From contig DASXMJ010000023.1 of assembly GCA_036495685.1 (NCBI GenBank), forward strand, positions 77,020 through 141,019: DNA of 64,000 bases. The letters run 5' to 3'. The translations under genes were made by a program, and so were the position numbers. Origin of the DNA: Candidatus Binataceae bacterium. Its GTDB lineage: Bacteria > Desulfobacterota > Binatia > Binatales > Binataceae. Shown in pieces: positions 2,227 through 47,240 of the stretch. The notes below the pieces were generated by a model. The model was not told the DNA's origin. It worked only from the letters and a program-made list of their open reading frames with translations, and did no database searches. How positions within the stretch are numbered: position 1 is the first letter of the stretch; every line of letters begins with the position of its first letter.

Positions 2227-4671
2227 CTACGGCTCCGAGTAAGCCGCTTTGTACTGCTCGTGCAGTTTCTCTTGGGCGGCCGCAGCCTCATCCGCGGTAT
2301 TATAAGGGCCGATTCGCACCGCATACTGCGTCTCTCCGTTTATAGTTCTGGTTTTCTCGCACGCTTTGTACCCGAGCCCCGCGATGCGCCCGACCATCGC
2401 GTCCGCTTCGCTCTTCTCGCTTACCGCACTCACCTCAATGTTGTAGCGGTGAGGCGTCGGCACGCATTGTGATGGAGCTGGGCCAGTGGATGGCGCGCTT
2501 TCAGTCGCGGACTCCTCATCCCCGGAAGCAGCCTCCGAGGAAATGATCGTCGTTTTCGATCGCGGGAGCGATGGCGCCGGCTCATTGCGTCTTTCAGTCG
2601 ATGCCATTTTCCCATGTTTTGGCGTGTTCGGTTTCACCACCATTGGCGGTGCAGGTTCGGCTGGGCCTCTGGATTCGGGCATGCTCTCGGGCGGCCGCGG
2701 CGGAATCGCCTTGCTCGCCTGGACCGGCGCCACGGTTGGCTGCGTCGCATTTTCTTCTCGGTAACGCTTCCAGCGGTCAATTCCGGAGGAAAGCGCGAGC
2801 AGCAACACAACGACCAAGCCTATCCGCAATCTCCCACGGCGGCGACACAGACCCCGCGTGCTACGGCGACCATCGTCACGGGGTGAAGGCTCGCGAGCTT
2901 CGCCGAAAACGAATTGCTCCCGCTCGAGACCTCGCTCTCTCCCACGAGCTTCAGGCGCGGCCCGGGGAATCGGAGGGGGCTCACGCCGGGGACCCGTCGC
3001 GGTGTCGGACGGCAACTCGATAACTTTACTGGGCTGCTCAGAAGCCGCCGCCCACAGCACCGCGAAAACGCGATGCGAACCGCTAAGTCCCTTGAGGTTC
3101 AGATCCCGACCACCATCAAAGCGAATATCGCCGGCGCTCTCGGTCATCGCCTTGAAGGTCGCCGACACTAGGATCTGTGCACCGCTGGCGGCGGCGCCGA
3201 TTCGCGCCGCCAGGACCACCGTTTTTCCGAAAAAGTCACCCGCCTCGCGGATCGCCTCGCCGGTGTTGAGACCGATGCGCACCCGCAGGGGTGCCTCGGG
3301 ATGCTGCTTCGAGTACGTTGCCAGCCATCGCTGGATCTCCACCGCGCACAGCAACGCGCGGCGCGCACTCGAAAACGCAACCATGAAACCATCACCCATG
3401 GTTTTAACTTCGTAGCCGCCCTCCTTGGCGACCTGCTCGCGAACCGCACGATTGTGGATTTGAAAGACCTCCTGCGCGCGCAGATCGCCGAGCTTCTCGA
3501 TGATCAGGGTGGAGTTCTCGATGTCCGAAAACATGATGCTCACGGTTCCATCAGGAGCCGCGTGGCCGCTCAGATTCGGCCGCTCCACCATCACGGTCGA
3601 TGCCATCTGGTCCATCGCCCCACGCGAGGAGCCGGCGATGGTGTGCAGCGTCTCTCGGACCATCGCTGCACTCAGGGGCCGCTCCGCCGGGGTCTTCGCG
3701 AGCAGTTTCAGCACCAGAGCATCAAGCGCCGGCGAGATGCCCGGAGCATGCTTTGAGGGCACTTCCGGTACCGCGTTGACGTGCTGCGAGATAATGGCCA
3801 TCAGATCGTCGCCGATGAACGGCGGACGACCGGTGAGCAATTCGTAGATCAGCGCGCCCAGTGAATAGAGATCGCTTCGCGGCTCGAGCGCGCGCCCCAC
3901 CGCCTGCTCAGGCGACATATAGGCAGCCGTCCCGACCATCATCCCATGCGACGTAATGCGCGATTGATCGGGTGCAATCGCAAGGCCGAAATCACCGAGC
4001 AGCGGCGTACCGTCGCCGGAAAGAAACACATTGGCGGGCTTGATGTCGCGATGGACGATGCCGAGCGAATGCGCATATTCAACTCCAAGACACAGCTGTT
4101 CGGCGATTCGAATGGTATCGGTGACCGGCAAACGATGACCGGGTGCGTGGCGCAGCAAATCGCTGAGCGAACCCCCAGGCACATATTGGCTGACGATGTA
4201 GGGGCGGCCCTGCTCCGCTTCGCCGATGTCGTAGATGCCGACGATATGCGGGTGGTCGCCGAGGCGGCCCATCGCGCGTGCCTCGCGCAGAACTCGCGCG
4301 CGGCCCGCGTCGTCCAGCCCCTCGACCCGAAACAAGGCAACCGCCACATCGCGATCCAAGGTCTCGTCGTGGGCGAGGTAGACGACCTTGCTGCCGCCCT
4401 CGCCCAGGATCCGACGCACGCGATAGCGCCCGCCGGCGATCGACTCCACCTGGGGCTGGGCCGCGGCGGAGGGTGGGCCCGCGGTACCCACCCCAGAGCC
4501 TAACGACGAATTGGAGCGCGCGGAAAGCGACTTACCGCATCTACCGCAGAACTTCTCATCGGCGCGGTTGCTGGCGCCGCATACGGAGCAGGCAACTTCG
4601 AGCGCCGCCCCGCATTGGCCACAGAAACTACGCCCCTCGGCGTTAGCGCTGCCACAGGACCCACACAGCAC
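2227..4671 (-). CDS. multidomain signalling protein: double zinc ribbon - Ser/Thr protein kinase - class III adenylyl/guanylyl cyclase - TM helix - SPOR domain
   Basis: 814 aa. The N-terminus has two CxxC...CxxC ribbons. Kinase motifs are present: GEGGSKVVY, HRDIKPAN, DFG, SPE. The cyclase domain carries FSDIENST, KTMGDGFMVAF and RIGLNTGEA. A hydrophobic helix LRIGLVVVLLLALSSGI follows. The C-terminal roughly 75 aa match the SPOR pattern (YNIEVSAVSEKSEADAMVGRIAGLGYKA...YAVRIGPYNTADEA). Confidence 0.85.
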   Translation of the reverse strand: MLCGSCGSANAEGRSFCGQCGAALEVACSVCGASNRADEKFCGRCGKSLSARSNSSLGSGVGTAGPPSAAAQPQVESIAGGRYRVRRILGEGGSKVVYLAHDETLDRDVAVALFRVEGLDDAGRARVLREARAMGRLGDHPHIVGIYDIGEAEQGRPYIVSQYVPGGSLSDLLRHAPGHRLPVTDTIRIAEQLCLGVEYAHSLGIVHRDIKPANVFLSGDGTPLLGDFGLAIAPDQSRITSHGMMVGTAAYMSPEQAVGRALEPRSDLYSLGALIYELLTGRPPFIGDDLMAIISQHVNAVPEVPSKHAPGISPALDALVLKLLAKTPAERPLSAAMVRETLHTIAGSSRGAMDQMASTVMVERPNLSGHAAPDGTVSIMFSDIENSTLIIEKLGDLRAQEVFQIHNRAVREQVAKEGGYEVKTMGDGFMVAFSSARRALLCAVEIQRWLATYSKQHPEAPLRVRIGLNTGEAIREAGDFFGKTVVLAARIGAAASGAQILVSATFKAMTESAGDIRFDGGRDLNLKGLSGSHRVFAVLWAAASEQPSKVIELPSDTATGPRREPPPIPRAAPEARGRERGLEREQFVFGEAREPSPRDDGRRSTRGLCRRRGRLRIGLVVVLLLALSSGIDRWKRYREENATQPTVAPVQASKAIPPRPPESMPESRGPAEPAPPMVVKPNTPKHGKMASTERRNEPAPSLPRSKTTIISSEAASGDEESATESAPSTGPAPSQCVPTPHRYNIEVSAVSEKSEADAMVGRIAGLGYKACEKTRTINGETQYAVRIGPYNTADEAAAAQEKLHEQYKAAYSEP

Positions 4672-4777
4672 CCGCCTATTGTAACCAGACGCTTCGCCGA
4701 GGACACACGGGTGTACAGCAAATTCCTGCCGCCTAGGGAGCTGCGATCGATCCCGGCGAAATCCGCGAAATTGGCTG

Positions 4778-8289: not shown

Positions 8290-8395
8290 GGGCAGCAGAA
8301 CTCCGCCGCACCCAGAAACGAAGGTAGAAGCGCGCCGAACAATTGCCCTCCACGGGTCTCGGTCCGGGAGCGGCAGAGATTGGCGATGGCCCCGG

Positions 8396-9952
8396 CTAGG
8401 GGCGCATTGTCCGCGTCCTTGGACCCAGCTGGGTGGGGACTATCTCGTAGGCCTGATGGACCCAGTCCACGAGCAACGGGCGGGTATCGCGTGGATCGAT
8501 AATCTCTTCGATTCCAAATGAGTCCGCAGTCCGAATCGGTGAACGAATCGCATTGAATTTTTCTTCCAGTTCGCGCCGGAGTTTTTCGGGATCGCTCGCA
8601 GCTGCCAGATCGCGTTTGTAGGCCGCCTCGATTCCACCCTCAATCGGCAGCGAGCCCCAGTCCGCGGATGGCCATGCGTATCGCAGGTTTAGCCCAGTCG
8701 TAATGCCGTGACCGGCACCCGCCACCCCAAAGGCGCGGCGCACCATGATCGCGACTTTGGGCGTGATGGTCTGGAACATCGCGTAAAGCGCGCGCACGCC
8801 GCGACGGATGGTTCCGGAACTTTCCGCTTCGCGGCCGATCAGAAAGCCCGGTTGATCGACGAAATTGACGATCGGCAGATGGAACGTGTCGCAGAGGTCG
8901 AGGAACTTCGCCATCTTGTCCGATGCGGGTCCATCCAGCGAACCACCGATCGCGTAGGGATCGTTCGCCATCACCGCCACACCGTAACCATCGAGCCGCG
9001 CGAACCCGGTTATCAACGATGGGCCGAAAAACGGCGTCATTTCGAAAAAGGAATCGCGATCCATGACCAGCTCAAGGATTCGCCGTGCATCGTAGCCGTG
9101 GCGGCGGTTGCGCGGAATCAGCGAAATCAGTTCCTCCTCCCGGCGATGGGGGTCGTCACTCGGTGTGACGCGCGGCGGCATTTGCCACACGCTTTGCGGC
9201 AGATAAGAGAGGAAGCGTCGGATCTGCTCGAAGGCCTCCTCTTCGCTCTCGGCTTCGTTGTCGACTGCGCCGCTCGTATGCGCATGGATCTCCGAACCGC
9301 CGAGTTCCTCCTTGGTCAGGTCCTCGCCCACGCCCCATTTGACGACGGGTGGTCCCGCCACGAAGAGCTGACTGGTACCTTTGACCATTACCGCAAAATG
9401 CGTCGCTGCAACCCGCGCCGCGCCGATTCCCGCGACCGAGCCCATGCAACCCGCGACCACCGGCACCTCGCCCATCAGCTGCACGAGAACGTCGAAATCC
9501 GGATTTGCAGGCACGTAGGTACGTCGCGTGGTTTCAAAGGTCTTCACGCTGCCGCCGCCCCCGGTCCCGTCGACCAGCCGGATGATCGGGATGTGCAGTT
9601 CGTGCGCGAGCAGCTCCGCATAGCTGTGCTTGTTGCCAATCGAGGCATCGGCGGCGCCGCCGCGTACCGTGAAGTCGTCGCCACCCACCGCGACCCGTCG
9701 GCCGTTAATGCGGCCAGTCCCACCCACGAAGTTCGCGGGCCGGAACTCGACCAGCTTGTCGCCGTCGTATTTCGTCATTCCGGCAATCGCGCCGTATTCG
9801 TGGAACGAACCTTTGTCGAGCAGCCGATCGAGACGTTCGCGCACCGTCAGCTTACCGCCATCGTGCTGGCGCTTGATATTCTCGACGCCGCCCATCTGCT
9901 TGGCTAACTGCTCGCGGCGGCGAATTTCATCGATCTCGGGCTGCCAGGACAT
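8396..9952 (-). CDS. acyl-CoA carboxylase carboxyltransferase subunit (PccB/MmdA family)
   Basis: The N-terminus (MSWQPEIDEIRRREQLAKQMGG...KRQHDGGKLTVRERLDRLLD) and overall length match propionyl-CoA carboxylase beta / methylmalonyl-CoA decarboxylase alpha. The ATG at 9952 has a GGAGGGAG RBS 6 nt upstream. Confidence 0.85.
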   Translation of the reverse strand: MSWQPEIDEIRRREQLAKQMGGVENIKRQHDGGKLTVRERLDRLLDKGSFHEYGAIAGMTKYDGDKLVEFRPANFVGGTGRINGRRVAVGGDDFTVRGGAADASIGNKHSYAELLAHELHIPIIRLVDGTGGGGSVKTFETTRRTYVPANPDFDVLVQLMGEVPVVAGCMGSVAGIGAARVAATHFAVMVKGTSQLFVAGPPVVKWGVGEDLTKEELGGSEIHAHTSGAVDNEAESEEEAFEQIRRFLSYLPQSVWQMPPRVTPSDDPHRREEELISLIPRNRRHGYDARRILELVMDRDSFFEMTPFFGPSLITGFARLDGYGVAVMANDPYAIGGSLDGPASDKMAKFLDLCDTFHLPIVNFVDQPGFLIGREAESSGTIRRGVRALYAMFQTITPKVAIMVRRAFGVAGAGHGITTGLNLRYAWPSADWGSLPIEGGIEAAYKRDLAAASDPEKLRRELEEKFNAIRSPIRTADSFGIEEIIDPRDTRPLLVDWVHQAYEIVPTQLGPRTRTMRP

Positions 9953-10133
9953 ACTCGTCTCCCTCCGCAATCCTCCGATCCTAGCGCCTTTGCCCTCTCG
10001 CTGTCAGGGAGAGGACCCGAGGAGAGTCCAGCCGCAAGCGCGGCTCTTTCGCCCGCGCTTCAGCAGGGCGCGGCGAGTTTCCCGTCGCGGGAGAGGTAAT
10101 CGATCTGTTACCTTCTACGCCGTGACCACTCCG

Positions 10134-11489
10134 ATGCCGCCCGCGAAGCGCGCCGCCCTTACCGGATGGGGCCGCTACCCGAGTGCCGCGAGTGATATTT
10201 TCCGACCCGAAAAACTCGCCGAGCTTGCGGCGATCGTCAGCAGCAATGCGACTTCTCTCATCGCGCGTGGAGCGGGTCGCGCCTACGGCGATGCGGCCCT
10301 GAATCACGACCAACGGGTCGTTGATGTACAGCGGCTCAACCGCATGCTGGCATTCGACCCCGACAGTGGGTTGCTCCGATGTGAGGCCGGCGTAACGCTC
10401 GCGGCAATAATCGAGGTCTTCCTGCGACGCGGTTTTTTCCCGCCGGTGGTTCCGGGAACCCAGTTTGTCACGCTGGGCGGTTCGGTCGCCGCCGATATCC
10501 ACGGCAAGAGCCACCACCGCGATTCGTCTCTGGCCACCCACGTCACCTGTATCGAGCTGATGCTCGCATCGGGCGAAGTGAAACGCTGCTCGCGCGAGGA
10601 AAATCCTGACCTTTTCTGGGCGACGGTGGGAGGAATGGGGCTCACGGGCGTCATCCTCGAGGTCGAGCTGCGCCTGCGTCGCGTGGAGAGCGCGTGGTTC
10701 GATGGCGAAATCGCGATAGCGGCCAACCTCGACGAAGCCATCGAGACCTTCGAGCGCACCGAACGACAATATGGATACTCTGTCGCCTGGATCGATTGCG
10801 CCGGGACGCGCGGCTCACTAGGCCGCTCGGTCATCAACCTTGGCAACGTCGCCTCTCGCGAGGCGCTCGCTCCTCCGCTCCGCCAGCAGCCGCTTCGGAT
10901 TCCGTCCCGATTCGCTCCCACGGTGCCCTTCAATCTGCCCAACTTCACGTTGAGCTCGCTCGGCATCAAGACCTTCAACGCCGCGATCTATGCGATGAAC
11001 CGCAAAGGCCCGCGCCTGTTCGACTACCAGAGCTTTTTTTTTCCGCTCGATTTCATCCGCCACTGGAACCGCATCTACGGCCAGCGCGGGTTCGTTCAGT
11101 ACCAGTGCGTATGGCCAGCCAACGAAAGCCGCGAGGGCCTGATCGAGATGCTCGAAGCGATCAGCAAATGGGGCGGCGGGTCCTTCCTGACGGTACTCAA
11201 GAAATTCGGCCCCCAGGACGGGATGCTTTCCTTTCCGATGCCCGGCTACACACTCGCGTTGGATTTTCCGGTGAGCAAAGGGCTGATGGAATTTCTCGAC
11301 CGACTGGATGCCATGGTCCTCAAGCGCGCCGGCCGCGTGTACCTGGCCAAAGATGCGCGCCTCAAACCGGAGATGTTCAGTGCAATGTATCCAAACCTCG
11401 CGCGGTGGCAACAAGTCAAACGCGCGGCCGATCCCAACAACCGGTTCTCGTCAAACCTCGCGCGCAGGGTCGGCCTGCTGCCATCGTAG
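10134..11489 (+). CDS. dprE1: decaprenylphosphoryl-beta-D-ribose 2'-oxidase (DprE1), FAD-dependent
   Basis: Near-motif-for-motif match to mycobacterial DprE1: LTGWGR, GRAYGD, VPGTQFVTLGG, DIHGKSHH, LFWATVGGMGLTGVI, FGPQDGMLSFPMPGYTLALDFP, RVYLAKDAR, LARRVGLL. The track ORF N-terminal extension overlaps the upstream gene and is rejected. Confidence 0.85.
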   Translation: MPPAKRAALTGWGRYPSAASDIFRPEKLAELAAIVSSNATSLIARGAGRAYGDAALNHDQRVVDVQRLNRMLAFDPDSGLLRCEAGVTLAAIIEVFLRRGFFPPVVPGTQFVTLGGSVAADIHGKSHHRDSSLATHVTCIELMLASGEVKRCSREENPDLFWATVGGMGLTGVILEVELRLRRVESAWFDGEIAIAANLDEAIETFERTERQYGYSVAWIDCAGTRGSLGRSVINLGNVASREALAPPLRQQPLRIPSRFAPTVPFNLPNFTLSSLGIKTFNAAIYAMNRKGPRLFDYQSFFFPLDFIRHWNRIYGQRGFVQYQCVWPANESREGLIEMLEAISKWGGGSFLTVLKKFGPQDGMLSFPMPGYTLALDFPVSKGLMEFLDRLDAMVLKRAGRVYLAKDARLKPEMFSAMYPNLARWQQVKRAADPNNRFSSNLARRVGLLPS

Positions 11490-21526: not shown

Positions 21527-21984
21527 CAGAGCCCAGCTTTTTTGCGTTGCGCCTCGTAGCTGGCATCACCCAGATCGGTCGACACCGGCAGTCCGCTCTC
21601 GTGCCATCCGGCGACGACCAGGTTGCCGGATTGATCGCGCTGGCCGCCGAATCCGCCCGCCACGTTGGTCAAATCGGTGTATCCGGCTTCTTCGAGCATC
21701 TCGCACGCTCGCATCGAGCGCCCGCCTGCCTGGCAGCCTACCACCAGCTTCCGACTTTTCGGGAGAACTTTCCCGACGACCTCGACAAAGTCCGGATTCG
21801 CCTGCATCTGTCCCGGCCCCTTGATGAATACCACCGGGATGTTGATCGCACCCGCGGCGTGACCTTGGGCGAATTCGCGCTCTGTGCGAACGTCAAGGTA
21901 AACCGCGTCAGGGTTTTGCTTCAAAGCCTCGAACGCCTCAGTCGGCCGGAATTGCTTGATCGGCATTGGCCTAAATTCCTCCAT
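21526..21984 (-). CDS. rhodanese-like sulfurtransferase domain protein
   Basis: 152 aa with an active-site loop CQAGGRS and LDVRTEREF. Its stop overlaps the adenosyltransferase start. Confidence 0.8.
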   Translation of the reverse strand: MEEFRPMPIKQFRPTEAFEALKQNPDAVYLDVRTEREFAQGHAAGAINIPVVFIKGPGQMQANPDFVEVVGKVLPKSRKLVVGCQAGGRSMRACEMLEEAGYTDLTNVAGGFGGQRDQSGNLVVAGWHESGLPVSTDLGDASYEAQRKKAGL

Positions 21985-22043
21985 AAGCTCCGCGCGACAA
22001 TCCTAGCAGGTAACATGAAAGAGGGGTCGAGCTCCGTTGTAGA

Positions 22044-22072
22044 ATGGTGAGTGGTTGACGAATTCACCATTT
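22044..22072. repeat. inverted repeat AATGGTGA...TCACCATT, immediately upstream of the transposase gene
   Basis: aatggtgagtggttgacgaattcaccatt has 8-bp perfect arms. It is plausibly the subterminal IR of the IS110/IS1111-type element. Confidence 0.35.
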
Positions 22073-22094: not shown

Positions 22095-23159
22095 ATGTTG
22101 TACGCCGGAATAGATTACCACAAACGATACTCGCAGGTGCACGTCATCGACGAGCAGGGGCGAACCCGAGTCACGGCACGACTGGCGAACGACTTAGCCA
22201 GCCTGCGGGGGTTTTTCGGTAAGTTGGCGGAGCCGTGTCGGGCGGTGGTTGAAGCGGGCTGGAACTGGGGCGTGATGTACGACTGGCTGGACGCAATCGA
22301 GAACGTGGCCGAGGTCGAGCTGGCGCATCCATATCGAGTCCGCGCGATCGCGGCGGCCCAGGTCAAGACCGATTCGATCGATGCGCACACCCTGGCGCAG
22401 CTGCTGCGGGTCAATCTGATCCCGCGCGCCTATGTACCAGGAGTGGAGACCCGACGGCTGCGCGAGCTGGTGCGCCAACGGGTGTTCCTGGTGCGGATGC
22501 GGACGATGGTGAAGAACCGCGTCCAGGCGCTGCTCGCACGCCAGCATGTGCCGCTGCCGGCGGTGAGCGATATTTTCGGCAAGCGCGGACGGGACTACTT
22601 GAGTAAGCTTAAGCTCGAAGGCGCGACACAGGAGCTCTTGCGCCAGGATCTCGAGTTGCTCGAGACCCTCACGGAGGAAGTGCGCGCGACCGAAAAGTGG
22701 CTGCACCAAGCGACCCAGAGCGATCAGCGGGTGGGAGCATTGCGTACCATTCCGGGGCTCGGCGAACTTCTAGCGACCGTGGTGGCGTTGGAGATCGACC
22801 GGATTGAGCGCTTTGAGACTCCCGCCAAACTCGCCGCCTACGCCGGACTGGTGCCGACCACCCATTCCTCCGGCGGGCACACTTTCCACGGCAAGCTGAT
22901 GCCGCAGAGCAACAAGTGGCTGCGCTGGGCGCTGGTGGAAGCGGCCTGGGTGGCGGTCAGACTCGATCCTTACTTCCGGGCGCACTTCGCCAAGCGCCGC
23001 GCGCACAAACCAGCCCAAAGCGCGATCATCGCGACCGCGCGCCGACTGCTGGAGGTGGTGTGGCATGTGCTCAAAGAAAATCGCCCCTATCAGAGCCGGC
23101 CAGTAACCGGTCCGAATCGAGCGTTAAACACTTCCTCGGCTGCCTTCGTCGCACCCTAG
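22095..23159 (+). CDS. IS110 family transposase
   Basis: 354 aa. It has the N-terminal DEDD-type motif YAGIDYHK and a C-terminal IS116/IS110/IS902-type domain. Confidence 0.9.
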   Translation: MLYAGIDYHKRYSQVHVIDEQGRTRVTARLANDLASLRGFFGKLAEPCRAVVEAGWNWGVMYDWLDAIENVAEVELAHPYRVRAIAAAQVKTDSIDAHTLAQLLRVNLIPRAYVPGVETRRLRELVRQRVFLVRMRTMVKNRVQALLARQHVPLPAVSDIFGKRGRDYLSKLKLEGATQELLRQDLELLETLTEEVRATEKWLHQATQSDQRVGALRTIPGLGELLATVVALEIDRIERFETPAKLAAYAGLVPTTHSSGGHTFHGKLMPQSNKWLRWALVEAAWVAVRLDPYFRAHFAKRRAHKPAQSAIIATARRLLEVVWHVLKENRPYQSRPVTGPNRALNTSSAAFVAP

Positions 23160-23494: not shown

Positions 23495-24007
23495 CTATGC
23501 GCTCGGGTTCCCGTAACGCTCGTAATGAACCATCTCTTTTTTCGGGCGCAGCGGACGCGACTCGGGAGGCCGTTTTGGGTCCGAATAACCGAAGGGCAAA
23601 ATGGTGAAGATTGCCCACGGCGCGGGAGCGCCGAGCATCTCGCAGATTTTGAGGTTGTCAAAATTGCCGACCCAGCAGGTACCGAGTCCCAACGCCCAAC
23701 CCGCCACCGCCATGTTCTGCACCGCCTGCGCGCAGTCGACATCGGCCCACCGCGCGTTCTCGGTGTTCTTTAGCACGACGATCGCGGCGGGCGCGTCGGA
23801 GACAAAACGTCCGGTCGAGCAAAGCTCGCCCATCTTCTTGAGGCACGCCCGATCGCGCACCACGATGAATTGCCAGGGCTGCAGGTTGCGTGCGCTCATC
23901 GCATGCCGGCCTGCATCGACGATGTGCTCGAGTTTGTCGCTTTCAACGTCGCGCGTGGAAAATCCGCGCTGCACTCGTCTGCTTTTGATGGCCTCGATCG
24001 CTTCCAT
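23495..24007 (-). CDS. nitroreductase family protein
   Basis: 170 aa with RRVQRGFSTRDV, NLQPWQFIVV and a C-terminal LPFGY. Confidence 0.8.
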   Translation of the reverse strand: MEAIEAIKSRRVQRGFSTRDVESDKLEHIVDAGRHAMSARNLQPWQFIVVRDRACLKKMGELCSTGRFVSDAPAAIVVLKNTENARWADVDCAQAVQNMAVAGWALGLGTCWVGNFDNLKICEMLGAPAPWAIFTILPFGYSDPKRPPESRPLRPKKEMVHYERYGNPSA

Positions 24008-24097
24008 GGGAACACTCCTGTCGAGAATCGGAATCGACCTGCTGAGCGCGGTTCGGCGACTCCCCCCGCGTGTGTGGCGACCGGCGAGGACCGGACC

Positions 24098-24379
24098 TCA
24101 GCCGCGTTTGTATACGATATAACTCTCGGCGAACTTCGCGATGCGATCCTGCACCGACGCGGTCCGCTGCGTACCCAGGAAGAACTGGACCAGTTCCTCG
24201 TGGCCGATCTCGCCACCGGGACTCAGCAATTCCACCAGCTCGTCGATTAGGGTGGGAAATTTCTCGCTCGGGATGTAGTAGTTCGCCCAGCCGAAGTTGC
24301 AGTGGCGATGGAGAATCTTCGCAATGGTCTTTTCCAGGACCTCGCGCCGGCCGCCATCGTGATTCTGTTCGTCGCTCAA
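24098..24379 (-). CDS. hypothetical protein (93 aa)
   Basis: No recognisable family. It is tightly linked (30-nt gap) downstream of the YiiX-like gene. Confidence 0.45.
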   Translation of the reverse strand: MSDEQNHDGGRREVLEKTIAKILHRHCNFGWANYYIPSEKFPTLIDELVELLSPGGEIGHEELVQFFLGTQRTASVQDRIAKFAESYIVYKRG

Positions 24380-33398: not shown

Positions 33399-34061
33399 TC
33401 AGGAGGTGAACCCCTTCTTCGCCTTCAGCTCCTTAAGCAGGGTATCGATCCTCTGTTCACGCTCGAGCACGTGGAAGCGCAGGTCAACCTCGTCATCGGT
33501 TCCGACCAGTTCGCCATTGGCCCTGCCCAGGGCCTCTTCGCGAGCGACCTTGGAGCGCATTCGATCGAAGGTGCGGCTTTCCCCATTGGGCGCTTGCGCA
33601 TCGGCCGCGCGTCGGGTGGCACGTGATCGTCGATGCTGCACGATCAGCATGTCCACCCTTTCGCGGGCCTCGGCGAGCTTTACTTCGAGCCGTTTCAGCG
33701 CGGTTTTCAGAGCCTCGACCTGCGCCTCCTGGTCCGCGATCTGCTGATCCAGGCTCTCATTCAGTTGCTGAAATCGCAGCGCACGCTCCAGAGCTGCGCG
33801 CGCCAGTCCGTCATCCTTCTTATCGACCGCCAGTTCGGCCTTGCGCATCCACTCGGCGTGCTTCTCACCGGTCTCGTTTTTCTTCTTCTCCAGCAAGTGC
33901 AGGTCGGCCAGCGCGATCGCGACCTGGGTCTTGACCTGTATGAATTGGTTTTCCATGTCGAGAATCACCTGCTTGAGCATCTTCTCGGGATTCTCGGCCT
34001 GGTCGAGCAGGTCGTTCAGGTTGGCCCGAACGAGCGTCGCAACACGATCTAGCAGTGCCAT
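33399..34061 (-). CDS. pspA: PspA/IM30 (phage shock protein A / Vipp1) family protein
   Basis: 220 aa, a coiled-coil protein with MALLDRVATLVRANLNDLLDQAENPEKMLKQVILDMENQ. Confidence 0.85.
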   Translation of the reverse strand: MALLDRVATLVRANLNDLLDQAENPEKMLKQVILDMENQFIQVKTQVAIALADLHLLEKKKNETGEKHAEWMRKAELAVDKKDDGLARAALERALRFQQLNESLDQQIADQEAQVEALKTALKRLEVKLAEARERVDMLIVQHRRSRATRRAADAQAPNGESRTFDRMRSKVAREEALGRANGELVGTDDEVDLRFHVLEREQRIDTLLKELKAKKGFTS

Positions 34062-34141
34062 AAAAACCTCCTCGCTCGCGTGAGTAAGGGTCCCGCAATT
34101 GCCGCGTCGCTGCTAAGCGATCTCATCGCGCACCCGGTGCC

Positions 34142-35584
34142 CTACTCTCGGTCGCCATTCTTGGAGCCCGCGGGGCGCTCCGCCTTGTCGCCGATCATGC
34201 GAACCTTTTTGAGCAGCTCGGACATCTGCATGCCCGACAGCGCTTCGAACAGCGCCGGGACCTGAGCAGCCATCTGGGCGATATCGCCGGTAATCTTGTG
34301 CAGGCCCGCGGAATCACCGTCGCCGGTAGAAACCACCGTGATGCGATCGACGTTGGCCAAGGGGCTCGCCAAAGCCTTCACCACCTCGGGCAGGCCGGTA
34401 ATCAATTTGTCTGCTACCGCAGCCTGGTTGTATTCCTGGTACGCCTCGGCCTTGAGATTCATCGCACGGGCTTCGGCCTCGCCTTTCTTGAAGATAATTT
34501 CCGCTTCCGCCTCGCCTTGCGCGCGGATCGCGCTGGCGCGCCCTTGCGCCTCGGCCATCATGCGCGCCTTCTCGGCCTCGGCGATGGTCTGGATGCGCTG
34601 GCGTTCGACCTCGGCCTGCTTGAGCACTGTGGCGATCAGTTCCTTTTCACGGCGCACAATCTCGGCTTCCTGCACCTTCACCTGGCGCTCTTTCTCGACC
34701 TGCTGGACCTTGACGGATTCGGCCACTACCTGCTGCTGCATGACGTTGGCCTGAATCTCGTAGGCCTTGTCGGCCTGCGCCTGCTGGCGCTTCACCAGCT
34801 CCGCATATTCGGCCTTCTTCACCTCGAGGTCGCGCTGCGCCTCGGCTTGTCGGGCCAGCGATGCGGTTTCCGCCGCGACCCGCTCCTGGTCTGCCTGCGC
34901 CTTGGCGATGGCCGCTTCACGCAGCGCGATCGCCCGCTTGATCGCGGTGTCGCGGTCCGCCTCCGCCGCGGCCACGTCGGCATCGCGCCGGATGCGCGCG
35001 ATATCTGGGCGGCCCATGTTGGTGATGTACTCGTTCTTGTCACGGACCTCCTTGATCGTGAAGGAAATCACTTCAAGACCCATCTTGTTCATGTCGTCGG
35101 CACAGGTTGAGCGCATCCGATCGGCCACCATCTCGGGTTGCTTCACGATCTCCTCGACCGTTAGCTGCCCGATGATTCCGCGCAGGTGCCCTTCCATTAC
35201 CAGGCGAATCAGCGCCTCGCGGTCCGGAGCGAGCTTGGTGAGGAACTGTTCCGACGCGGTTAGAATCGACTCGGGGTCCGACTTGACCTTGATTTGCGCG
35301 ACTGCCTCGACGGTCACCGCCACGCCTTGCTTGGTATAGAGGTCCTGCTGGGGGGCGACATCGAAAGACATCAGCTCCAGCGACAGCTCGCGGCAGTTCT
35401 CTACCATCGGGAAGATGACAGTGCCGTGTCCCTTGATGACCCGGGTGCCGCGAAATCCATACACCACCAGCGCCTCGTGCGGCCCGGCCTTCCGGTACAG
35501 CCTTGCAAACACCACCATCACCAGGAGCAGAGCGCCGACCGCGATCACGGCAACGATCACAGCGTCGGTTAACACGTTAGACAT
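34142..35584 (-). CDS. flotillin (SPFH/band-7 domain) family protein
   Basis: An N-terminal TM segment, an SPFH domain, then a long Ala/Glu/Gln-rich coiled-coil flotillin region (FloT/YuaG-like). Confidence 0.85.
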   Translation of the reverse strand: MSNVLTDAVIVAVIAVGALLLVMVVFARLYRKAGPHEALVVYGFRGTRVIKGHGTVIFPMVENCRELSLELMSFDVAPQQDLYTKQGVAVTVEAVAQIKVKSDPESILTASEQFLTKLAPDREALIRLVMEGHLRGIIGQLTVEEIVKQPEMVADRMRSTCADDMNKMGLEVISFTIKEVRDKNEYITNMGRPDIARIRRDADVAAAEADRDTAIKRAIALREAAIAKAQADQERVAAETASLARQAEAQRDLEVKKAEYAELVKRQQAQADKAYEIQANVMQQQVVAESVKVQQVEKERQVKVQEAEIVRREKELIATVLKQAEVERQRIQTIAEAEKARMMAEAQGRASAIRAQGEAEAEIIFKKGEAEARAMNLKAEAYQEYNQAAVADKLITGLPEVVKALASPLANVDRITVVSTGDGDSAGLHKITGDIAQMAAQVPALFEALSGMQMSELLKKVRMIGDKAERPAGSKNGDRE

Positions 35585-35624
35585 ATTTCCTCCTCGCGGA
35601 TCATCAACGCACTCGTAGCGAGCA

Positions 35625-36248
35625 TTAGTCTCGAGCTCTGGCCTCACCTCCGGCCATTTCTTCCCAGCGGCGAACGTACGCGATTCCCTGTTCGTAGCGA
35701 GTCACGACAACTTCCGTGCCGCGCGCGAGGGCCTCGCCCTTCTCGCTGCGAGCGCCACAGGTATGGCGCGTGCCCGCCTGGGAAAAGATGATCTCGCCGG
35801 TGCCACCCGGGCCGACCGGGCTGACAATGCGTGCGAGCACCCCGACCCGATCGTAGTCCGCGGGATCCAGTTCCCGGTCATGCGCGAGCAGCAGCTTGAC
35901 GACGAACCAGAAGATGATGGCTGCGCCCACGGTTCCGGCTCCGCCGGCGAACAACAGAATCAGCAGCGCGGCCAGCGGCGAATGCTCGGTCAGCAGGTAA
36001 CCGGTGGCGCCAAACCAGGCCAGGAACACGGTTATCGTCCCCAGGTTGAAGACCGGTAAAGAACCGCGAGCGCTGCCGGCATCGGGCGCATGCGCATCGG
36101 GTAGCGCGGCATGCCCATGAAACCAACGCACGAAGTGAAGGTGCGGGAAGTGAAAGTGCGTCAGGTGCAGACCGCCGAATACAAACGCAATCACGCTCAG
36201 CGCGGTCCCGACGAAAAAACACACCAGGTAGAAAGTCGCCCAGGTCAT
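35625..36248 (-). CDS. NfeD-like membrane protein (flotillin partner, YuaF-like) with a C-terminal OB fold
   Basis: An N-terminal multi-TM region and a C-terminal soluble beta-domain (GTEVVVTRYEQGIAYVRRWEE). It sits immediately upstream of flotillin, as in yuaF-floT. Confidence 0.65.
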   Translation of the reverse strand: MTWATFYLVCFFVGTALSVIAFVFGGLHLTHFHFPHLHFVRWFHGHAALPDAHAPDAGSARGSLPVFNLGTITVFLAWFGATGYLLTEHSPLAALLILLFAGGAGTVGAAIIFWFVVKLLLAHDRELDPADYDRVGVLARIVSPVGPGGTGEIIFSQAGTRHTCGARSEKGEALARGTEVVVTRYEQGIAYVRRWEEMAGGEARARD

Positions 36249-37698: not shown

Positions 37699-39186
37699 TT
37701 AGACCGGCCCGACGAAGAAATTCAGCGAGCGGTTGGCGAACGTGATGATCGGCGTCCAGTAGATACCTAGTGCGATCGTCGCGCCCGCCAGTACCCCCAT
37801 CAGGCCGTAGTTCCAGGTGTCGCCGGCAATCTTGCCCTCGTCGCCGTTGGGCAAATCCAGGAACATCGTCTTGATCGGACGCATGTAGTAGTAGAGCGAA
37901 ACCACCGAATTCATCACGCCCACGATCGCGAGCACATAGAACCCCCCGTGGATAACCGCGGCGAACAAATAGAACTTGCCGATGAACCCGATCGTGAGCG
38001 GGATACCCGTCAGCGACAGCAGGAAGATGCTCAGCGCAATCGCCGGGACCACTCCGCCCCGCCATGCGAGCCCGCGGTAGGCATCGATATCTTCGCGACC
38101 GGTACTGTTGGCGACGATCATCACCACCAGGAACGCGCCCGCATCCATTAGGTAGTAGGCGAACAGGTAGAACATCATCGCACGGATTCCGTCGTTCGAC
38201 AGCACCACGAACCCCATCAACGCGTAGCCCGCCTGCGCGATACTCGAATACGCCAACAGCCGCTTCATGTTGGTCTGCTGCAGCGCGGCGAGATTGCCCA
38301 GCGTCATCGTTATGACGCAGATGACCAGCAGCAGTTGCGGCCAATCGACACCCTTTGGCACCTGCCAGCTTCCGCTTGCGGTGAGCGAGGAGATGGCGGG
38401 AAAGAAAAACCGGGTCAGCAGCGCGAACCCCGCGGCCTTGGATCCGATCGCCAGAAAGGTGGTGATCGGAATCGGCGCGCCCGTGTACACATCGGGCGCC
38501 CACATGTGAAACGGCACCGACGCGACCTTGTAGCCCATCCCGGCCAGGATCAGGACCAGCGAAATGAACACCGTCAGCACCGGGAGCGCGCCGTGAGTGG
38601 TCAGGGCCTTGTTGATAACGGCGAAATCGAGCGAGCCACTGATACCGAAGATCCAGCTCATCCCGTAAATCATCGTGCCCGATGCGACCCCGCCGTAGAT
38701 GAGATACTTGAGCGCGGCCTCCAGCGAGCGCCGGTTGTGGCGCAGAAACCCGGTCAGGATGTACGAAGTCAAGCTCACGAACTCGAGTGAAAGATACGCC
38801 ATCAAAAGATTCGCCGACTCGGCCATCAAAAACATCGCCACCGTGCTCGCGAGCAGGATGGCGTAGTATTCGCCCTGATCGCACCCCCGCACTTCCTCGG
38901 AGCCCATCGACATCCAGACCGCAACCAGCGCGGCCAGCGCAATCAGCGCGCGAAAAAACATCGCGAAGCCGTCGAACACCAGCATCCTGTGAAACAGCCA
39001 GGCACTCGCGGTAACCGGGGTCAGCGCAATCAGCAGCAGTGCGCCGGCGGTGATGATCAGGGCCAGGTCGCCCAGGTGGGTCTTGTTTGTGACCAGCAGA
39101 TCGACGATGACCAGGAGCAGAAGGCCCCCGGTCAGCAGCAGCTCGGGCAGAAAATGAGCTAGGCTCGCGAAGTTTCCCAGGTCCAT
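37699..39186 (-). CDS. nuoN: NADH-quinone oxidoreductase subunit N
   Basis: A 495-aa polytopic antiporter-like subunit. It is the last gene of the nuo operon. Confidence 0.9.
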   Translation of the reverse strand: MDLGNFASLAHFLPELLLTGGLLLLVIVDLLVTNKTHLGDLALIITAGALLLIALTPVTASAWLFHRMLVFDGFAMFFRALIALAALVAVWMSMGSEEVRGCDQGEYYAILLASTVAMFLMAESANLLMAYLSLEFVSLTSYILTGFLRHNRRSLEAALKYLIYGGVASGTMIYGMSWIFGISGSLDFAVINKALTTHGALPVLTVFISLVLILAGMGYKVASVPFHMWAPDVYTGAPIPITTFLAIGSKAAGFALLTRFFFPAISSLTASGSWQVPKGVDWPQLLLVICVITMTLGNLAALQQTNMKRLLAYSSIAQAGYALMGFVVLSNDGIRAMMFYLFAYYLMDAGAFLVVMIVANSTGREDIDAYRGLAWRGGVVPAIALSIFLLSLTGIPLTIGFIGKFYLFAAVIHGGFYVLAIVGVMNSVVSLYYYMRPIKTMFLDLPNGDEGKIAGDTWNYGLMGVLAGATIALGIYWTPIITFANRSLNFFVGPV

Positions 39187-39198
39187 CGGCTTTTAATC

Positions 39199-40698
39199 TC
39201 AGTGCAGCAGCGCGACCGCGGGCCCCGGCGTCGAGAGCACCACCTGATTGAGGTGCACAAGCGAAGTGTTGAGCAGCCCCAGAATCGCCTGCGGGTAAAC
39301 GCCCAGGATCAGCACGATCGCCGCGAGCGGCACCAGGGTGAACGACTCGCGGAAGCTCAAGTCCAGGTAGCCTGCGTACTTCTCGTTGAACGGACCCAGA
39401 TAAATCCGCTGATAGGTCCATAGGAGATATCCCGCGGTCAAGATCGCGGTCGCCGCGCCGAACACGGTCATCAACGGATAGGTCTGCCATGCGCCGATCA
39501 GCACCAGGACTTCCGAAATGAATGCCGACATGCCCGGCAGCGCCATGCCGGCAAAGAACGCGAACCCGGTCATGCCGGCGTACAGCGGCATCTGCTGAGC
39601 GAGCCCGCCGAACCCCGCGATCTCGCGATGATGCGCGCGGTCGTAGATCACGCCGACCAGGATGAAGAGCATGGCGGTGACGGTGCCGTGATTGAACATC
39701 TGCAACACGGCGCCGTTGATTCCCGCGGCCGTGAACGACGCAACCCCCAGCATCACGTAGCCCATGTGGCTGATCGAAGAATAAGCGATCAGTTTCTTGA
39801 AATCAGTCTGCGCCATCGCGCACAAAGCGCCGTACACGATGTTGATGGTCCCGATCACCCCCAAGAACAGCCACGCTAACTGATGGGTGGCTTCGGGAAG
39901 CATCGCGAAATTGACGCGCAGGATTCCATAGGTGCCCATCTTGAGCAGCACGCCCGCCAGGATGACGGAAATCGCGGTTGGCGCTTCCACGTGCGCATCC
40001 GGCAGCCAGGTGTGAAACGGAAACGCGGGAATCTTGATCGCAAAGCCGATGAACAGCGCGATCCATACGATGCGCTGGAAGGTCGTTGAATAGTGTGATG
40101 CATTCGACGCGAGCACCGTCATGTCGAAGGTGCTCTGTGCGCCGTAGTAGTAGAGGCCGAGCATGGCCAGCAGGATCAGCACCGAGCCAAACAGCGTGTA
40201 GAGAAAGAACTTGATCGCCGCGTACTCGCGCCGCGGGCCGCCCCATATGCCGATCAGGAAGTACATCGGCAGCAGCATCACTTCCCAGAAAATGTAGAAC
40301 AGGAAGAAATCCAACGAGACAAACACGCCCATCATTCCGGCGTCGAGCATCAGCAGCAGCGCATAGTAAGCCTTCTCGGCGCGAGTGATGCTGAAGCTGG
40401 CGAACACCGAGATGAAGCAAATGAGCGCGGTCAGCAGCACCATCGAGATCGAGATGCCGTCGACGCCCATGAAGTAGGTGATGTGATAGGCCGGAATCCA
40501 CTGGTACTTTTCCGCAAACTGGATGGCGGTGGTCGTGGTGTCGAAGCTCGTGTAGAGGCCGATCGCGATCGCGAGCTGAACGGCGGTGGCCGCGGCGGCG
40601 ATCCATTTGCAGGCGTTCTGCATGGCCGCGGGCATCGCGAGACACACGACCATGCCGGCGACCGGAACGAAGGTAATAAGCGTCAGCGCGTGATCCAT
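39199..40698 (-). CDS. nuoM: NADH-quinone oxidoreductase subunit M
   Basis: A 499-aa antiporter-like subunit. Confidence 0.9.
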   Translation of the reverse strand: MDHALTLITFVPVAGMVVCLAMPAAMQNACKWIAAAATAVQLAIAIGLYTSFDTTTTAIQFAEKYQWIPAYHITYFMGVDGISISMVLLTALICFISVFASFSITRAEKAYYALLLMLDAGMMGVFVSLDFFLFYIFWEVMLLPMYFLIGIWGGPRREYAAIKFFLYTLFGSVLILLAMLGLYYYGAQSTFDMTVLASNASHYSTTFQRIVWIALFIGFAIKIPAFPFHTWLPDAHVEAPTAISVILAGVLLKMGTYGILRVNFAMLPEATHQLAWLFLGVIGTINIVYGALCAMAQTDFKKLIAYSSISHMGYVMLGVASFTAAGINGAVLQMFNHGTVTAMLFILVGVIYDRAHHREIAGFGGLAQQMPLYAGMTGFAFFAGMALPGMSAFISEVLVLIGAWQTYPLMTVFGAATAILTAGYLLWTYQRIYLGPFNEKYAGYLDLSFRESFTLVPLAAIVLILGVYPQAILGLLNTSLVHLNQVVLSTPGPAVALLH

Positions 40699-40731
40699 TT
40701 CCGATAGGTTCCCGTTCCCGTTGGCACGCGC

Positions 40732-42795: not shown

Positions 42796-42964
42796 CAGTT
42801 GCTCACGTCAAACGGCCATGCCGGAAGCCGGAGGTCGGAAGCTCAGCACCGCGGCACCGCAGTCCCCGCCACGACGAATCCCGCTGATATAAGCAGAAAA
42901 CTGAACTCCCGAAAAGGCGAATCGGCGCGTCGCGCAGAGCCGAAATTGTCGTTGCAACCGAGCG

Positions 42965-43279: not shown

Positions 43280-43302
43280 TGCGACTCTCCCGTACAGCCC
43301 CT

Positions 43303-43800: not shown

Positions 43801-43835
43801 TCTAGCAAAGCTCCTCCCGGCTTCTGCGGAAACGC

Positions 43836-44408: not shown

Positions 44409-44415
44409 TAAATTC

Positions 44416-45606: not shown

Positions 45607-45613
45607 TGCGGGC

Positions 45614-47238: not shown

Positions 47239-47240
47239 CC

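Follow-up and report, generated by a model that had tools for sequence, protein, structure and literature searches.

We found that a single 814-residue protein, encoded in a 64,000-nucleotide stretch of DNA (the window) from an uncultured soil bacterium, Candidatus Binataceae, combines a double zinc ribbon, a Ser/Thr kinase domain, a class III nucleotidyl cyclase domain, a putative transmembrane (TM) helix, and a SPOR domain, and that its kinase has a lysine in the glycine-rich loop, as in WNK, in place of the canonical β3 lysine. Sequence comparison indicates that zinc-ribbon kinases from several phyla (Binatota, Chloroflexota, and Actinomycetota, including Mycobacterium gastri) form a clade in which this lysine swap is conserved and which is usually linked to cyclases. 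The SPOR-bearing form is a rare, Binataceae-restricted variant of a known modular family.

The five modules that the sequence-only reading had proposed for this protein were all recovered, with the Pfam domains, including SPOR and the cyclase, scoring above their gathering cutoffs and one TM segment being found by hydropathy (Table 1). The gene lies on the minus strand, which that reading had left unstated, and the open reading frame (2227–4671) runs from a GTG start codon at 4669–4671 through 814 codons and a stop codon with no interruption. Because the sequence is from a metagenome-assembled genome (MAG) and the start varies among gene callers (738–836 amino acids), we considered the possibility that the fusion is an assembly or gene-calling artefact joining two or three genes. 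This is, however, hardly credible, given that the frame is open across 2,442 nt, that independent contigs from different samples share the architecture and the flanking genes at 60–91% identity, and that another locus carries a second SPOR subgroup. In these orthologues, which are from Candidatus Binataceae MAGs, the start site is also kept, and the same architecture was present in 33 of the 120 best clusters (90% identity) from independent samples and in six species-representative MAGs. The open reading frame and the fusion were thus confirmed to be real, and mis-assembly was rejected. The conserved flanking genes, which encode a GST and an enoyl-CoA hydratase, gave no hint of function, and no genes for a cAMP receptor, an FHA protein, or a PP2C phosphatase were found within the 64-kb window. 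The terminator-like hairpin weakly indicates that the transcript may end after this gene.

Table 1. Features of the kinase–cyclase–SPOR gene in window coordinates.
Feature	Position	Strand	Basis
Whole gene	2227..4671	-	ORF list, translation; HEY2484009.1 100% identical over 754 aa
Double zinc ribbon, residues 1–50	4522..4671	-	Pfam DZR, Zn_Ribbon_1; conserved Cys; AF2 pLDDT 80–86
PknB-like Ser/Thr kinase domain, residues 77–345	3637..4443	-	Pfam Pkinase; PknB best solved match
Codon of Lys95, third-Gly position of Gly-rich loop (G90-E-G92-G-S-K95)	4387..4389	-	Gapless with Lys of WNK1 'GSFK'; aligns with PknB Ser23
Codon of Ala112, position of canonical β3 (VAIK) Lys	4336..4338	-	Aligns with PknB Lys40 and with Cys of WNK1 'AWCEL'
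Class III nucleotidyl cyclase catalytic domain, Ma1120-like, residues 373–542	3046..3555	-	Pfam Guanylate_cyc; Ma1120 match
Codon of Val486, canonical transition-state Asn position	3214..3216	-	Spacing matches Ala164 of Ma1120
Arg/Pro-rich disordered linker, predicted cytoplasmic, residues 543–611	2839..3045	-	pLDDT <50; Arg-rich stretch just before TM
Predicted single TM helix, residues about 612–634, core 617–631	2770..2838	-	Hydropathy peak 1.81; flank charges; AF2 helix 610–641
Pro/Ser/Ala-rich spacer, predicted periplasmic, residues 635–741	2449..2769	-	Composition; mostly pLDDT <50
SPOR domain, residues 742–814	2230..2448	-	Pfam SPOR; orthologue profile; AF2 fold
Terminator-like hairpin and T-run, overlapping stop codon	2229..2247	-	Consensus scan

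The double zinc ribbon matched DZR (PF12773; residues 3–46, 37.2 bits against a cutoff of 27.3) and Zn_Ribbon_1 (37.2 bits, above the gathering score), and consists of two ribbons with two CxxC knuckles each (C3/C6, C17/C20, C28/C31, and C42/C45). Orthologues with as little as 46% identity retain all eight cysteines, and in several of them an ATG occupies the position of the long start; both observations support the 814-residue start site over shorter calls. The NCBI record HEY2484009.1 ('protein kinase', Candidatus Binataceae), which is 754 residues long, begins 60 residues too late and lacks the zinc ribbon.

The kinase domain matched Pkinase (PF00069; residues 83–338, E 2.8e-45, 155.2 bits against a cutoff of 31.7), and its best solved match was PknB (E 1.7e-57; Foldseek TM 0.92). 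The assignment to the Hanks-type kinases in the sequence-only reading was borne out by this match and by most of the catalytic residues, but not at the ATP-anchoring β3 (VAIK) lysine, the position of which is occupied by Ala112. Among 119 homologues, this residue was Ala in 102, Ser in 16, and Cys in 1, and lysine was absent from all of them. Every catalytic residue other than the β3 lysine was invariant or nearly so when conservation was scored across 68–120 homologues: αC Glu130, His207-Arg-Asp209, Lys211, Asp227-Phe-Gly, and Thr240 were invariant, Asn214 was nearly invariant, and the SPE motif (253–255) was likewise invariant or nearly so. In a BLASTP alignment with WNK1 (6cn9), which is gapless in this region, Lys95 coincides with the glycine-loop lysine of WNK1 and Ala112 with its cysteine. 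Lys95 was kept in 118 of the 119 homologues and was invariant in the group designated A1. The domain thus has a WNK-type active site, that is, a glycine-loop lysine together with a non-lysine β3 residue, in the sense of likeness and not of descent. Membership of the WNK family by descent was rejected, with PknB-type kinases leading the matches at E 1e-57 and WNK lying outside the best 60. As the identity to WNK1 is only 28%, PknB is far closer, and the kinase has DFG rather than DLG, its likeness to WNK is most likely convergent and not a result of common descent.

WNK has been described as the sole functional eukaryotic-type kinase family without the β3 lysine, and its glycine-loop lysine is needed for catalysis (PMC1821047). 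A kinase without the β3 lysine is scored as a pseudokinase by current criteria (PMC12599244), a kinase-like domain followed by a cyclase is also found in animal receptor guanylyl cyclases (PMC1262709), and the cyclase domain of the ANP receptor is a weak sequence match to the window cyclase. These points would fit a protein in which the cyclase is the sole enzymatic output and the kinase-like domain acts as a regulator that binds ATP without phosphorylating, as in those receptors. We consider this unlikely because pseudokinase families usually lose several motifs, whereas Asp209, Lys211, Asn214, Asp227, Glu130, and Thr240 are here invariant or nearly so, and because the lysine is fixed at the exact WNK position and is mutually exclusive with the β3 lysine. 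In the 224 kinase domains of the 150 best representatives, the glycine-loop lysine was present in 80, the β3 lysine in 121, and both in none, which is what a compensated relocation predicts.

The cyclase domain matched Guanylate_cyc (PF00211; residues 373–530, E 3.6e-19, 69.5 bits against a cutoff of 21.9), and the closest solved cyclase was Ma1120 of Mycobacterium avium (4wp3; E 2.4e-43; Foldseek TM 0.93, rmsd 1.7, 42% identity). With residue roles taken from PMC4215837, the two metal-binding aspartates, Asp383 (FSDI) and Asp427 (MGDG), were found to align with those of Ma1120, and the ATP-specifying pair, Lys423 and Asp479, with its K101 and D157. The sequence-only reading had taken the metal-binding aspartates and the Lys, Asn, and Arg positions all to be kept; this was correct for the aspartates, Lys423, and Arg490, but the transition-state asparagine of the Asn-Arg pair is replaced by Val486, located 7 residues past Asp479 and 4 ahead of Arg490, as in D157/A164/R168 of Ma1120. 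Across the family, position 486 was Ile in 79, Val in 27, and Asn in 14. The presence of Ile or Val in 106 of 121 relatives, together with the unclear specificity of the cyclase-like domain of Myxococcus xanthus Pkn2 (PMC1262709), would suit a protein whose output is the kinase and whose cyclase homology domain is weak or dead, serving as a dimerization or regulatory module. This seems improbable, however, because >85% of relatives retain the metal Asp pair, the substrate pair Lys/Asp, and the Arg and because Ma1120, which has Ala164 for the Asn, is an experimentally active adenylyl cyclase, the activity of which is reduced when the Asn is restored (PMC4215837). With an active enzyme that likewise has no Asn as its closest solved relative, the window cyclase is plausibly a functional adenylyl cyclase, in line with the sequence-only reading, and the adenine-specifying Lys423/Asp479 suggest cAMP as its product.

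The hydrophobic segment IGLVVVLLLALSSGI (residues 617–631) was the one such segment in the protein. Its core is short (15 residues), and in the closest orthologues the segment falls just below a standard hydropathy threshold; an equivalent hydrophobic segment was present in all orthologues. The 20-residue flank on its N side contains 8 Lys/Arg and the C flank 4, and the Arg-rich N flank points to an N-in orientation. The 110 residues that follow contain 21 Pro, 13 Ser, and 13 Ala, and were disordered in the AlphaFold2 (AF2) model. TonB_C domains are typically periplasmic. Paralogues with the same chassis have TonB_C, Sel1, or DUF4019 at the same C-terminal position, and Cys736 and Cys771, which flank the start of SPOR, are conserved in the orthologue group, both of which favor a C-out orientation. 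The predicted topology is, therefore, N-in/C-out, with SPOR in the periplasm rather than the cytoplasm, as the sequence-only reading had it. The AF2 model of the whole protein (pTM 0.45) does not fix the relative arrangement of the domains.

The SPOR domain matched PF05036 (residues 742–810, E 8.5e-13, 48.9 bits against a cutoff of 21), and a profile made from 14 orthologous SPOR segments gave CwlC (5e-6), FtsN (4.5e-4), and DedD (0.026) as its first matches among solved structures. The AF2 model (pLDDT 83–93) followed the β-α-β-β-α-β order of the SPOR fold, with strands at 743–750, 770–777, and 780–790 and helices at 753–765 and 793–811, the last short strand being absent from the model. The β1 motif, YNIEVSAV, is divergent from YKVQIGAF of CwlC and the usual Y-x-V-Q-x-G-A-F, and alignment with CwlC indicated a change from Gln to Glu and from Ser to Ala at SPOR positions, although some orthologues keep the Gln. 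The residues important for the septal localization of FtsN and DamX, namely Gln, Ser, and Trp, would correspond to Glu, Ala, and Tyr in the window SPOR, where the presumed equivalence of Tyr to Trp was placed by eye against an FtsN sequence. Given these substitutions, the binding of denuded glycan by this SPOR domain is uncertain, and tethering to the division septum would be by analogy with SPOR domains elsewhere. The substitutions could also mean that SPOR serves only to anchor the protein in the wall or as a spacer, lacking specificity for the septum or denuded glycan, and that the input comes by another route, such as the zinc ribbon or lateral membrane interactions; the conservation of the zinc ribbon and relocated-lysine kinase across phyla, with a C-terminal head that is interchangeable or absent, would agree with this. 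Such a role is rather unlikely in our estimation, because, among the orthologues, SPOR shows strong conservation that exceeds that of the linkers, and the interchangeable heads resemble the alternative sensor domains of other receptor kinases.

With respect to distribution, of the 150 best matches from 1.84 billion representatives only 2 full-length proteins, plus a fragment covering SPOR alone, had the SPOR form, and all were from Binataceae. The architecture is hence far from common in databases, and no description of a kinase–cyclase–SPOR protein was found in the literature searched, in keeping with the suggestion in the sequence-only reading that it is not a described type. The accompanying statement that kinase–cyclase fusions are rare did not hold, since the description of M. 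xanthus Pkn2 dates from 2005, NCBIfam has TIGR03903 as a curated family of such fusions, and about 68 of the 150 best representatives (50% identity) have both a kinase and a cyclase. SPOR, DUF4019, TonB_C, and Sel1 occur as alternative periplasmic heads on one chassis, and in three or more distinct architectures a kinase of the relocated-lysine type is paired with a class III cyclase, which, if the model proposed below holds, suggests a functional coupling of phosphorylation to cAMP synthesis. The WNK-type glycine-loop lysine and the place of SPOR as one among several interchangeable heads had both been missed by the sequence-only reading.

We propose, with about even confidence, that the protein is a peptidoglycan-tethered receptor in which clustering or dimerization switches on phosphorylation and cAMP synthesis. 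It would be a bitopic inner-membrane receptor with the zinc ribbon, kinase, and cyclase in the cytoplasm, the ATP-anchoring lysine of the kinase having presumably shifted from β3 (now Ala112) to the glycine-rich loop (Lys95) in a WNK-like manner. SPOR domains favor glycan strands without stem peptides at the division site. SPOR, on its Pro- and Ser-rich spacer of ~110 residues, would bind peptidoglycan glycan strands, and where this ligand is concentrated the receptor molecules would accumulate and pair. Pairing could generate an N-lobe back-to-back kinase dimer and trans-autophosphorylation, as suggested by the PknB interface residues R10, L33, and D76 and phospho-acceptor T171, which align with R82, L105, D148, and T240; D148 and T240 are invariant, R82 is nearly invariant, and L105 is the family consensus residue. 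Pairing would also complete the two-subunit cyclase active site, as every class III cyclase requires. In this way, the receptor might translate cell-wall or division status into phosphorylation on Ser/Thr and a local supply of cAMP.

A broader reading, which we put forward only tentatively, is that the domain is an active bacterial 'with-no-lysine' kinase that relocated its lysine independently and defines a multi-phylum, cyclase-coupled zinc-ribbon clade, the SPOR-headed member of which is the diderm counterpart of PASTA kinases, reporting septal peptidoglycan through phosphorylation and cAMP. The SPOR proteins known so far either have a structural role in division or are lytic enzymes. If the proposal is true, this would be the first receptor to couple SPOR peptidoglycan recognition to intracellular signaling enzymes, and it would represent a diderm analogue of PASTA kinases and a route from cell-wall remodeling to cAMP. 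The kinases would likewise be a second, independent functional group with the WNK-type swap, a large bacterial clade that current rules would mis-score as pseudokinases.

Among known systems, the SPOR division proteins (FtsN, DamX, DedD, RlpA, and CwlC) resemble the window protein in their SPOR domain, which in FtsN, DamX, and DedD is C-terminal and follows a single TM helix and a long Pro-rich periplasmic linker, the layout predicted for the window protein. They differ in that their cytoplasmic tails are small and non-enzymatic or that they have lytic domains, and none of them is known to carry a kinase or cyclase. In animal receptor guanylyl cyclases, a kinase-like domain lies next to the cyclase. 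These single-pass receptors (e.g., NPR1/GC-A) resemble the window protein in that this domain is immediately N-terminal to a class III cyclase, but their kinase-like domain is without catalytic residues (PMC1262709), their topology is inverted, with an extracellular N-terminal ligand-binding domain, and their specificity residues are those for GTP. Ma1120 shares the metal Asp pair, the Lys/Asp pair, the Arg, and a non-Asn residue at the transition-state position (Ala164, compared with Val486), and its solved cyclase-domain constructs are of 171–210 residues. In WNK and the window kinase alike, a lysine takes the place of the third Gly in the GxGxxG loop and β3 has a small residue. Nothing in the window kinase points to chloride sensing.

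The PASTA receptor kinases (PknB, StkP, and Stk1; NF033483) have the closest kinase domains in sequence and fold, with the dimer-interface and activation-loop residues conserved in the window kinase, and they share the logic of a cytoplasmic kinase, one TM helix, and an extracytoplasmic peptidoglycan-binding domain, a role that SPOR would fill in the window protein. The latter differs in having SPOR for the PASTA repeats, an inserted cyclase, an added zinc ribbon, and a replaced β3 lysine, and it falls outside NF033483 (286.6 bits against a cutoff of 450), matching only the kinase part (profile positions 3–279). TIGR03903 ('TOMM system kinase/cyclase fusion protein') also has a class III cyclase directly after the kinase. 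The window protein does not belong to it, scoring 136.8 bits against the equivalog cutoff of 705.75 and matching, through residues 107–565, profile positions 4–490 only; the 1267-position model has an ATPase/TPR part where the window protein has its TM helix and SPOR. P0081, P0134, and the M. gastri protein, all of them large relatives, were also under this cutoff. M. xanthus Pkn2, described as a kinase with a cyclase-like domain, a TM helix, and an extracellular region (Krupa & Srinivasan, 2005; PMC1262709), has the same module order as the window protein when compared through that published description: a cytoplasmic N-terminal kinase, a cyclase homology domain, one TM helix, and an extracytoplasmic C-terminus. 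Pkn2 was reported to have all the catalytic residues in its kinase, Glu/Thr as specificity residues in its cyclase-like domain, and an extracellular region with no recognized domain, whereas the window protein adds the double zinc ribbon, the SPOR head, and the relocated lysine, and has Lys/Asp as specificity residues.

The kinase-cyclase gene is a single ORF of 814 codons with a GTG start, as indicated by the ORF list and its translation. The five-module architecture proposed in the sequence-only reading was borne out by Pfam, in which every globular module exceeded the curated threshold, the cyclase and SPOR domains included, and one hydrophobic segment (core 617-631; eight Lys/Arg in its N flank and four in its C flank) was present between these two domains. 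The 110 residues after this segment include 21 Pro and 13 Ser. In the AlphaFold2 model (alignment of 68 sequences, mean pLDDT 75), the zinc ribbon, kinase and cyclase were all confident, a helix (610-641) was placed at the TM segment, the SPOR domain was folded as beta-alpha-beta-beta-alpha with a pLDDT of 83-93, and the linkers at 52-72, 543-611 and 643-730 were disordered. Foldseek against the PDB matched the model domain by domain, pairing the kinase with PknB at a TM-score of 0.92 and the cyclase with Ma1120 (TM 0.93, rmsd 1.7 Å), and found no multi-domain template for the whole.

Features of the window and of the 814-aa protein
Feature	Position	Strand	Basis or content
Kinase-cyclase gene	2227-4671	-	GTG start
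Double zinc ribbon	residues 3-46		Pfam
Pkinase	residues 83-338		Pfam, E 2.8e-45
Guanylate_cyc	residues 373-530		Pfam, E 3.6e-19
SPOR	residues 742-810		Pfam, E 8.5e-13
Lys95 codon	4387-4389	-	PknB and WNK1 alignments
Ala112 codon	4336-4338	-	PknB and WNK1 alignments
Cys736 codon	2464-2466	-
Cys771 codon	2359-2361	-
Region absent from HEY2484009.1	4492-4671	-	double zinc ribbon
TACAAT box region	4672-4690	-
Further WNK-like active sites	L010-L051 and L017:3977-8413		Gly-loop Lys, beta3 Ala/Ser
Carboxyl-transferase ORF	8396-9970	-
FAD-binding ORF	9630-11489	+	619 aa
Biotin-lipoyl carrier gene, orthologue loci	L001:3848-4060, L002:3913-4125, L003:3922-4185		70-87 aa
Corresponding position in the window	8290-8395
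IS110/IS116/IS902-family transposase	22095-23159	+	flanking small ORFs 21547-22050 and 23601-24122 without Pfam matches
PspA/IM30 gene directly beside SPFH/flotillin gene	33399-35647	-
Respiratory complex I (nuo) cluster	37699-48145	-	three Proton_antipo_M, chain 6, NADHdh, 49-kDa, 20-kDa, chain 3
High-GC3 ORF, 596 aa	49153-50943	-	no Pfam match at E 1e-5
High-GC3 ORF, 332 aa	52746-53744	+	no Pfam match at E 1e-5
High-GC3 ORF, 296 aa	36293-37183	+	no Pfam match at E 1e-5

NCBI HEY2484009.1, a Candidatus Binataceae MAG entry annotated as 'protein kinase', matched the protein over 754 residues with 100% identity. Kinase, cyclase and SPOR were found together in 33 of the 120 best database clusters (90% identity), all from metagenomes or Binataceae-type MAGs; six species-representative genomes matched across residues 1-814, and orthologues at 74, 64 and 60% identity had the same flanks as the window, with a glutathione S-transferase gene upstream and an enoyl-CoA hydratase gene downstream. 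This recurrence of the architecture with conserved flanking genes indicates a conserved single gene, so that a chimeric assembly was rejected and an artefactual fusion is considered extremely improbable. Furthermore, the eight zinc-ribbon Cys were kept even in orthologues at 46% identity, and at the codon of the GTG several orthologues start with ATG, indicating that the 814-aa form is right and that the 754-aa NCBI model, whose start lies 60 codons after the conserved one so that the double zinc ribbon is lost, is truncated. Several JGI models (738-784 aa) also miss this start and the double zinc ribbon. A -10-like TACAAT box was observed some 9 nt before the GTG, and the start codon has no more than a weak AGG beside it; the promoter scan found no full sigma-70 site upstream of the gene, and the mRNA may be leaderless or begin with a very short leader.

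Genomic context was rejected as a functional clue in view of the metabolic neighbors with their intergenic gaps (88-235 nt), the location of the other SPOR subgroup elsewhere, and the absence of cNMP-binding, FHA or PP2C genes anywhere in the 64-kb window. No second copy of the kinase-cyclase gene was found elsewhere in the window, which is an unremarkable stretch of chromosome containing metabolic genes, a complex I operon, an IS110 transposase, and PspA and flotillin genes that look like a membrane-stress pair. The carboxyl-transferase ORF overlaps the FAD-binding ORF by about 340 nt; the true start of the latter is probably further downstream than listed because its orthologues (L001-L003) are 452-475 aa long. 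Near the carboxyl-transferase gene, these orthologue loci have a small biotin-lipoyl carrier gene, for which the corresponding position in the window would be 8290-8395; the ORF list of the window comprises ORFs of at least 100 aa, a cut-off above the size of such a gene.

The main interest, above the fusion itself, lies in a WNK-like relocated Lys common to a cyclase-associated kinase clade of multiple phyla. The beta3 Lys of PknB (Lys40) aligned with Ala112 of the query, and Lys95 took the place of the third glycine in the Gly-rich loop, where PknB has Ser23. By BLASTP against WNK1, a eukaryotic kinase without the beta3 Lys (kinase domain sequence 100% identical to PDB 6cn9), the alignment was gapless here and paired Lys95 with the WNK1 Gly-loop Lys and Ala112 with a Cys. 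Lys95 was conserved in 118 of 119 homologues, which had Ala (102), Ser (16) or Cys (1) and never Lys at the beta3 position; Glu130, HRD, Lys211 and DFG were invariant and Asn214 nearly so. We conclude that this is most probably a working kinase with a WNK-like design and not a pseudokinase; it is unlikely, though the least so of the alternatives considered here, that it has a regulatory, ATP-binding role like its counterpart in receptor guanylyl cyclases. The Gly-loop Lys with beta3 Ala/Ser was also found in zinc-ribbon kinases of Chloroflexota, Actinomycetota, Mycobacterium gastri and M. ostraviense, the M. gastri protein (1478 aa) having a zinc ribbon, kinase, AAA ATPase and, further on, a cyclase. 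Of 224 kinase domains typed in the best 150 representatives, a sample biased by the query, 80 had the Gly-loop Lys without the beta3 Lys (56 in cyclase-containing proteins), 121 had the beta3 Lys (2 alongside a cyclase) and none had both. The Gly-loop form thus goes strongly with a class III cyclase domain in one protein; the mutual exclusivity, seen in this query-biased sample, is expected of a compensated relocation.

Arg10, Leu33 and Asp76 of the PknB dimer interface and Thr171 of its activation loop corresponded to Arg82, Leu105, Asp148 and Thr240; Asp148 and Thr240 were invariant, Arg82 nearly invariant, and Leu105 in the family consensus. Entries titled 'L33D mutant' and 'D76A mutant' were among the PknB structure matches in the PDB.

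The closest solved cyclase was Ma1120 of Mycobacterium avium (E 2.4e-43), and the roles of its K101, D157, A164 and R168 were used for assignment (PMC4215837). By equivalence, the metal-binding Asp383 and Asp427, the adenine-specifying pair Lys423 and Asp479, and Arg490 were present, in agreement with the earlier reading that both metal Asp and the Lys and Arg were kept; that reading erred in regarding the transition-state Asn as kept, since the position holds Val486. Among 121 relatives it was Ile in 79, Val in 27 and Asn in 14, and the remaining five key residues were conserved in more than 85%. Ma1120, which likewise has a non-Asn residue there (Ala164), is an active adenylyl cyclase whose activity was reduced by putting Asn in (PMC4215837). 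Because this active enzyme also lacks the Asn and the five other key residues are conserved, cAMP synthesis is plausible, and we consider it quite unlikely that the cyclase domain lacks activity and serves for dimerisation.

As to the C-terminal domain, when 14 orthologous SPOR segments were combined into a profile, the first matches were solved SPOR domains (CwlC 5e-6, FtsN 4.5e-4, DedD 0.026); the profile was needed, as the single segment gave only non-significant matches in the PDB (E 0.76-1.4). The sequence was well conserved inside the orthologue group. Since its first strand, YNIEVSAV, diverges from the usual Y-x-V-Q-x-G-A-F, specificity for denuded septal glycan would be an extrapolation. 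Cys736 and Cys771 flank the start of the domain and were kept throughout the main orthologue group, and the second SPOR subgroup has no equivalents; the FtsN SPOR domain contains a disulfide, and the two Cys might form one in the periplasm. An N-in/C-out topology is favored by the abundance of Arg just N-terminal to the TM segment, by these two conserved Cys, and by the paralogue heads at the same C-terminal position, including TonB_C, a domain that is typically periplasmic. In the closest orthologues, the TM segment falls below a simple hydropathy cut-off of 1.8, but alignment showed it to be present there.

The model that we favor, with about even confidence, is a peptidoglycan-tethered receptor with proximity-driven kinase and cyclase outputs. 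Through SPOR binding, the protein would accumulate in places rich in its glycan ligand, of which the division site is the most likely, and the resulting proximity would promote both PknB-like N-lobe dimerisation with trans-autophosphorylation and assembly of the obligately dimeric cyclase active site, so that the cell would receive two signals, phosphorylation and cAMP. It is rather unlikely that SPOR is a passive anchor, with the signal coming in via the zinc ribbon.

In an exhaustive HMMER search of 1.84 billion cluster representatives (50% identity), of which the best 150 proteins were typed, the SPOR-bearing architecture was found in 2 (the database proteins P0020 and P0068), together with one SPOR-only fragment. 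The exact kinase-cyclase-SPOR combination is a rare one, confined to Binataceae. On the same Binataceae chassis, the C-terminal head was SPOR in 33 clusters and DUF4019 in 30, with TonB_C, Sel1, Kelch and NHL as further heads. There were two SPOR subgroups, each at its own conserved locus, the second (P0068 and P0053 loci, L080 and L081; 46-57% identity) having a distinct conserved neighborhood of a hypothetical protein, P450, NUDIX, low-molecular-weight phosphatase and SDR; at L081, the gene adjoins an ECF sigma/anti-sigma (RskA) pair. These alternative heads and the two subgroups indicate that receptor-type kinase-cyclases have radiated within this lineage, the SPOR protein being one of them.

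In literature on SPOR and kinase, Binatota and cyclase, and TIGR03903, we found no description of this architecture, nor, in the literature searched, of a bacterial Gly-loop Lys relocation or WNK-like bacterial kinase, which for such incomplete searches is absence of evidence only; a 2025 bacterial Ser/Thr kinase atlas and a 2025 pseudokinase review mention neither this relocation nor a cyclase-linked or zinc-ribbon kinase family. The query shares the Lys swap with WNK kinases, yet it has DFG and not DLG, with an identity of only 28%, and WNK-like chloride sensing, with nothing in its favor, was rejected. The sequence-only interpretation was supported in part. Its view that kinase-cyclase fusions are rare did not hold, because about 68 of the best 150 representatives (50% identity clusters) carry both domains and such proteins were already known. 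M. xanthus Pkn2, described in 2005, combines a kinase, a cyclase-like domain, a TM segment and an unassigned extracellular region (PMC1262709), and the curated NCBIfam kinase/cyclase fusion family TIGR03903 was matched over kinase and cyclase, far under its cutoff; membership in this family and, likewise from a score below cutoff, in the PASTA-kinase family was rejected. The query is a receptor-type kinase-cyclase of a known kind, in which the predicted peptidoglycan-binding head is the new element.
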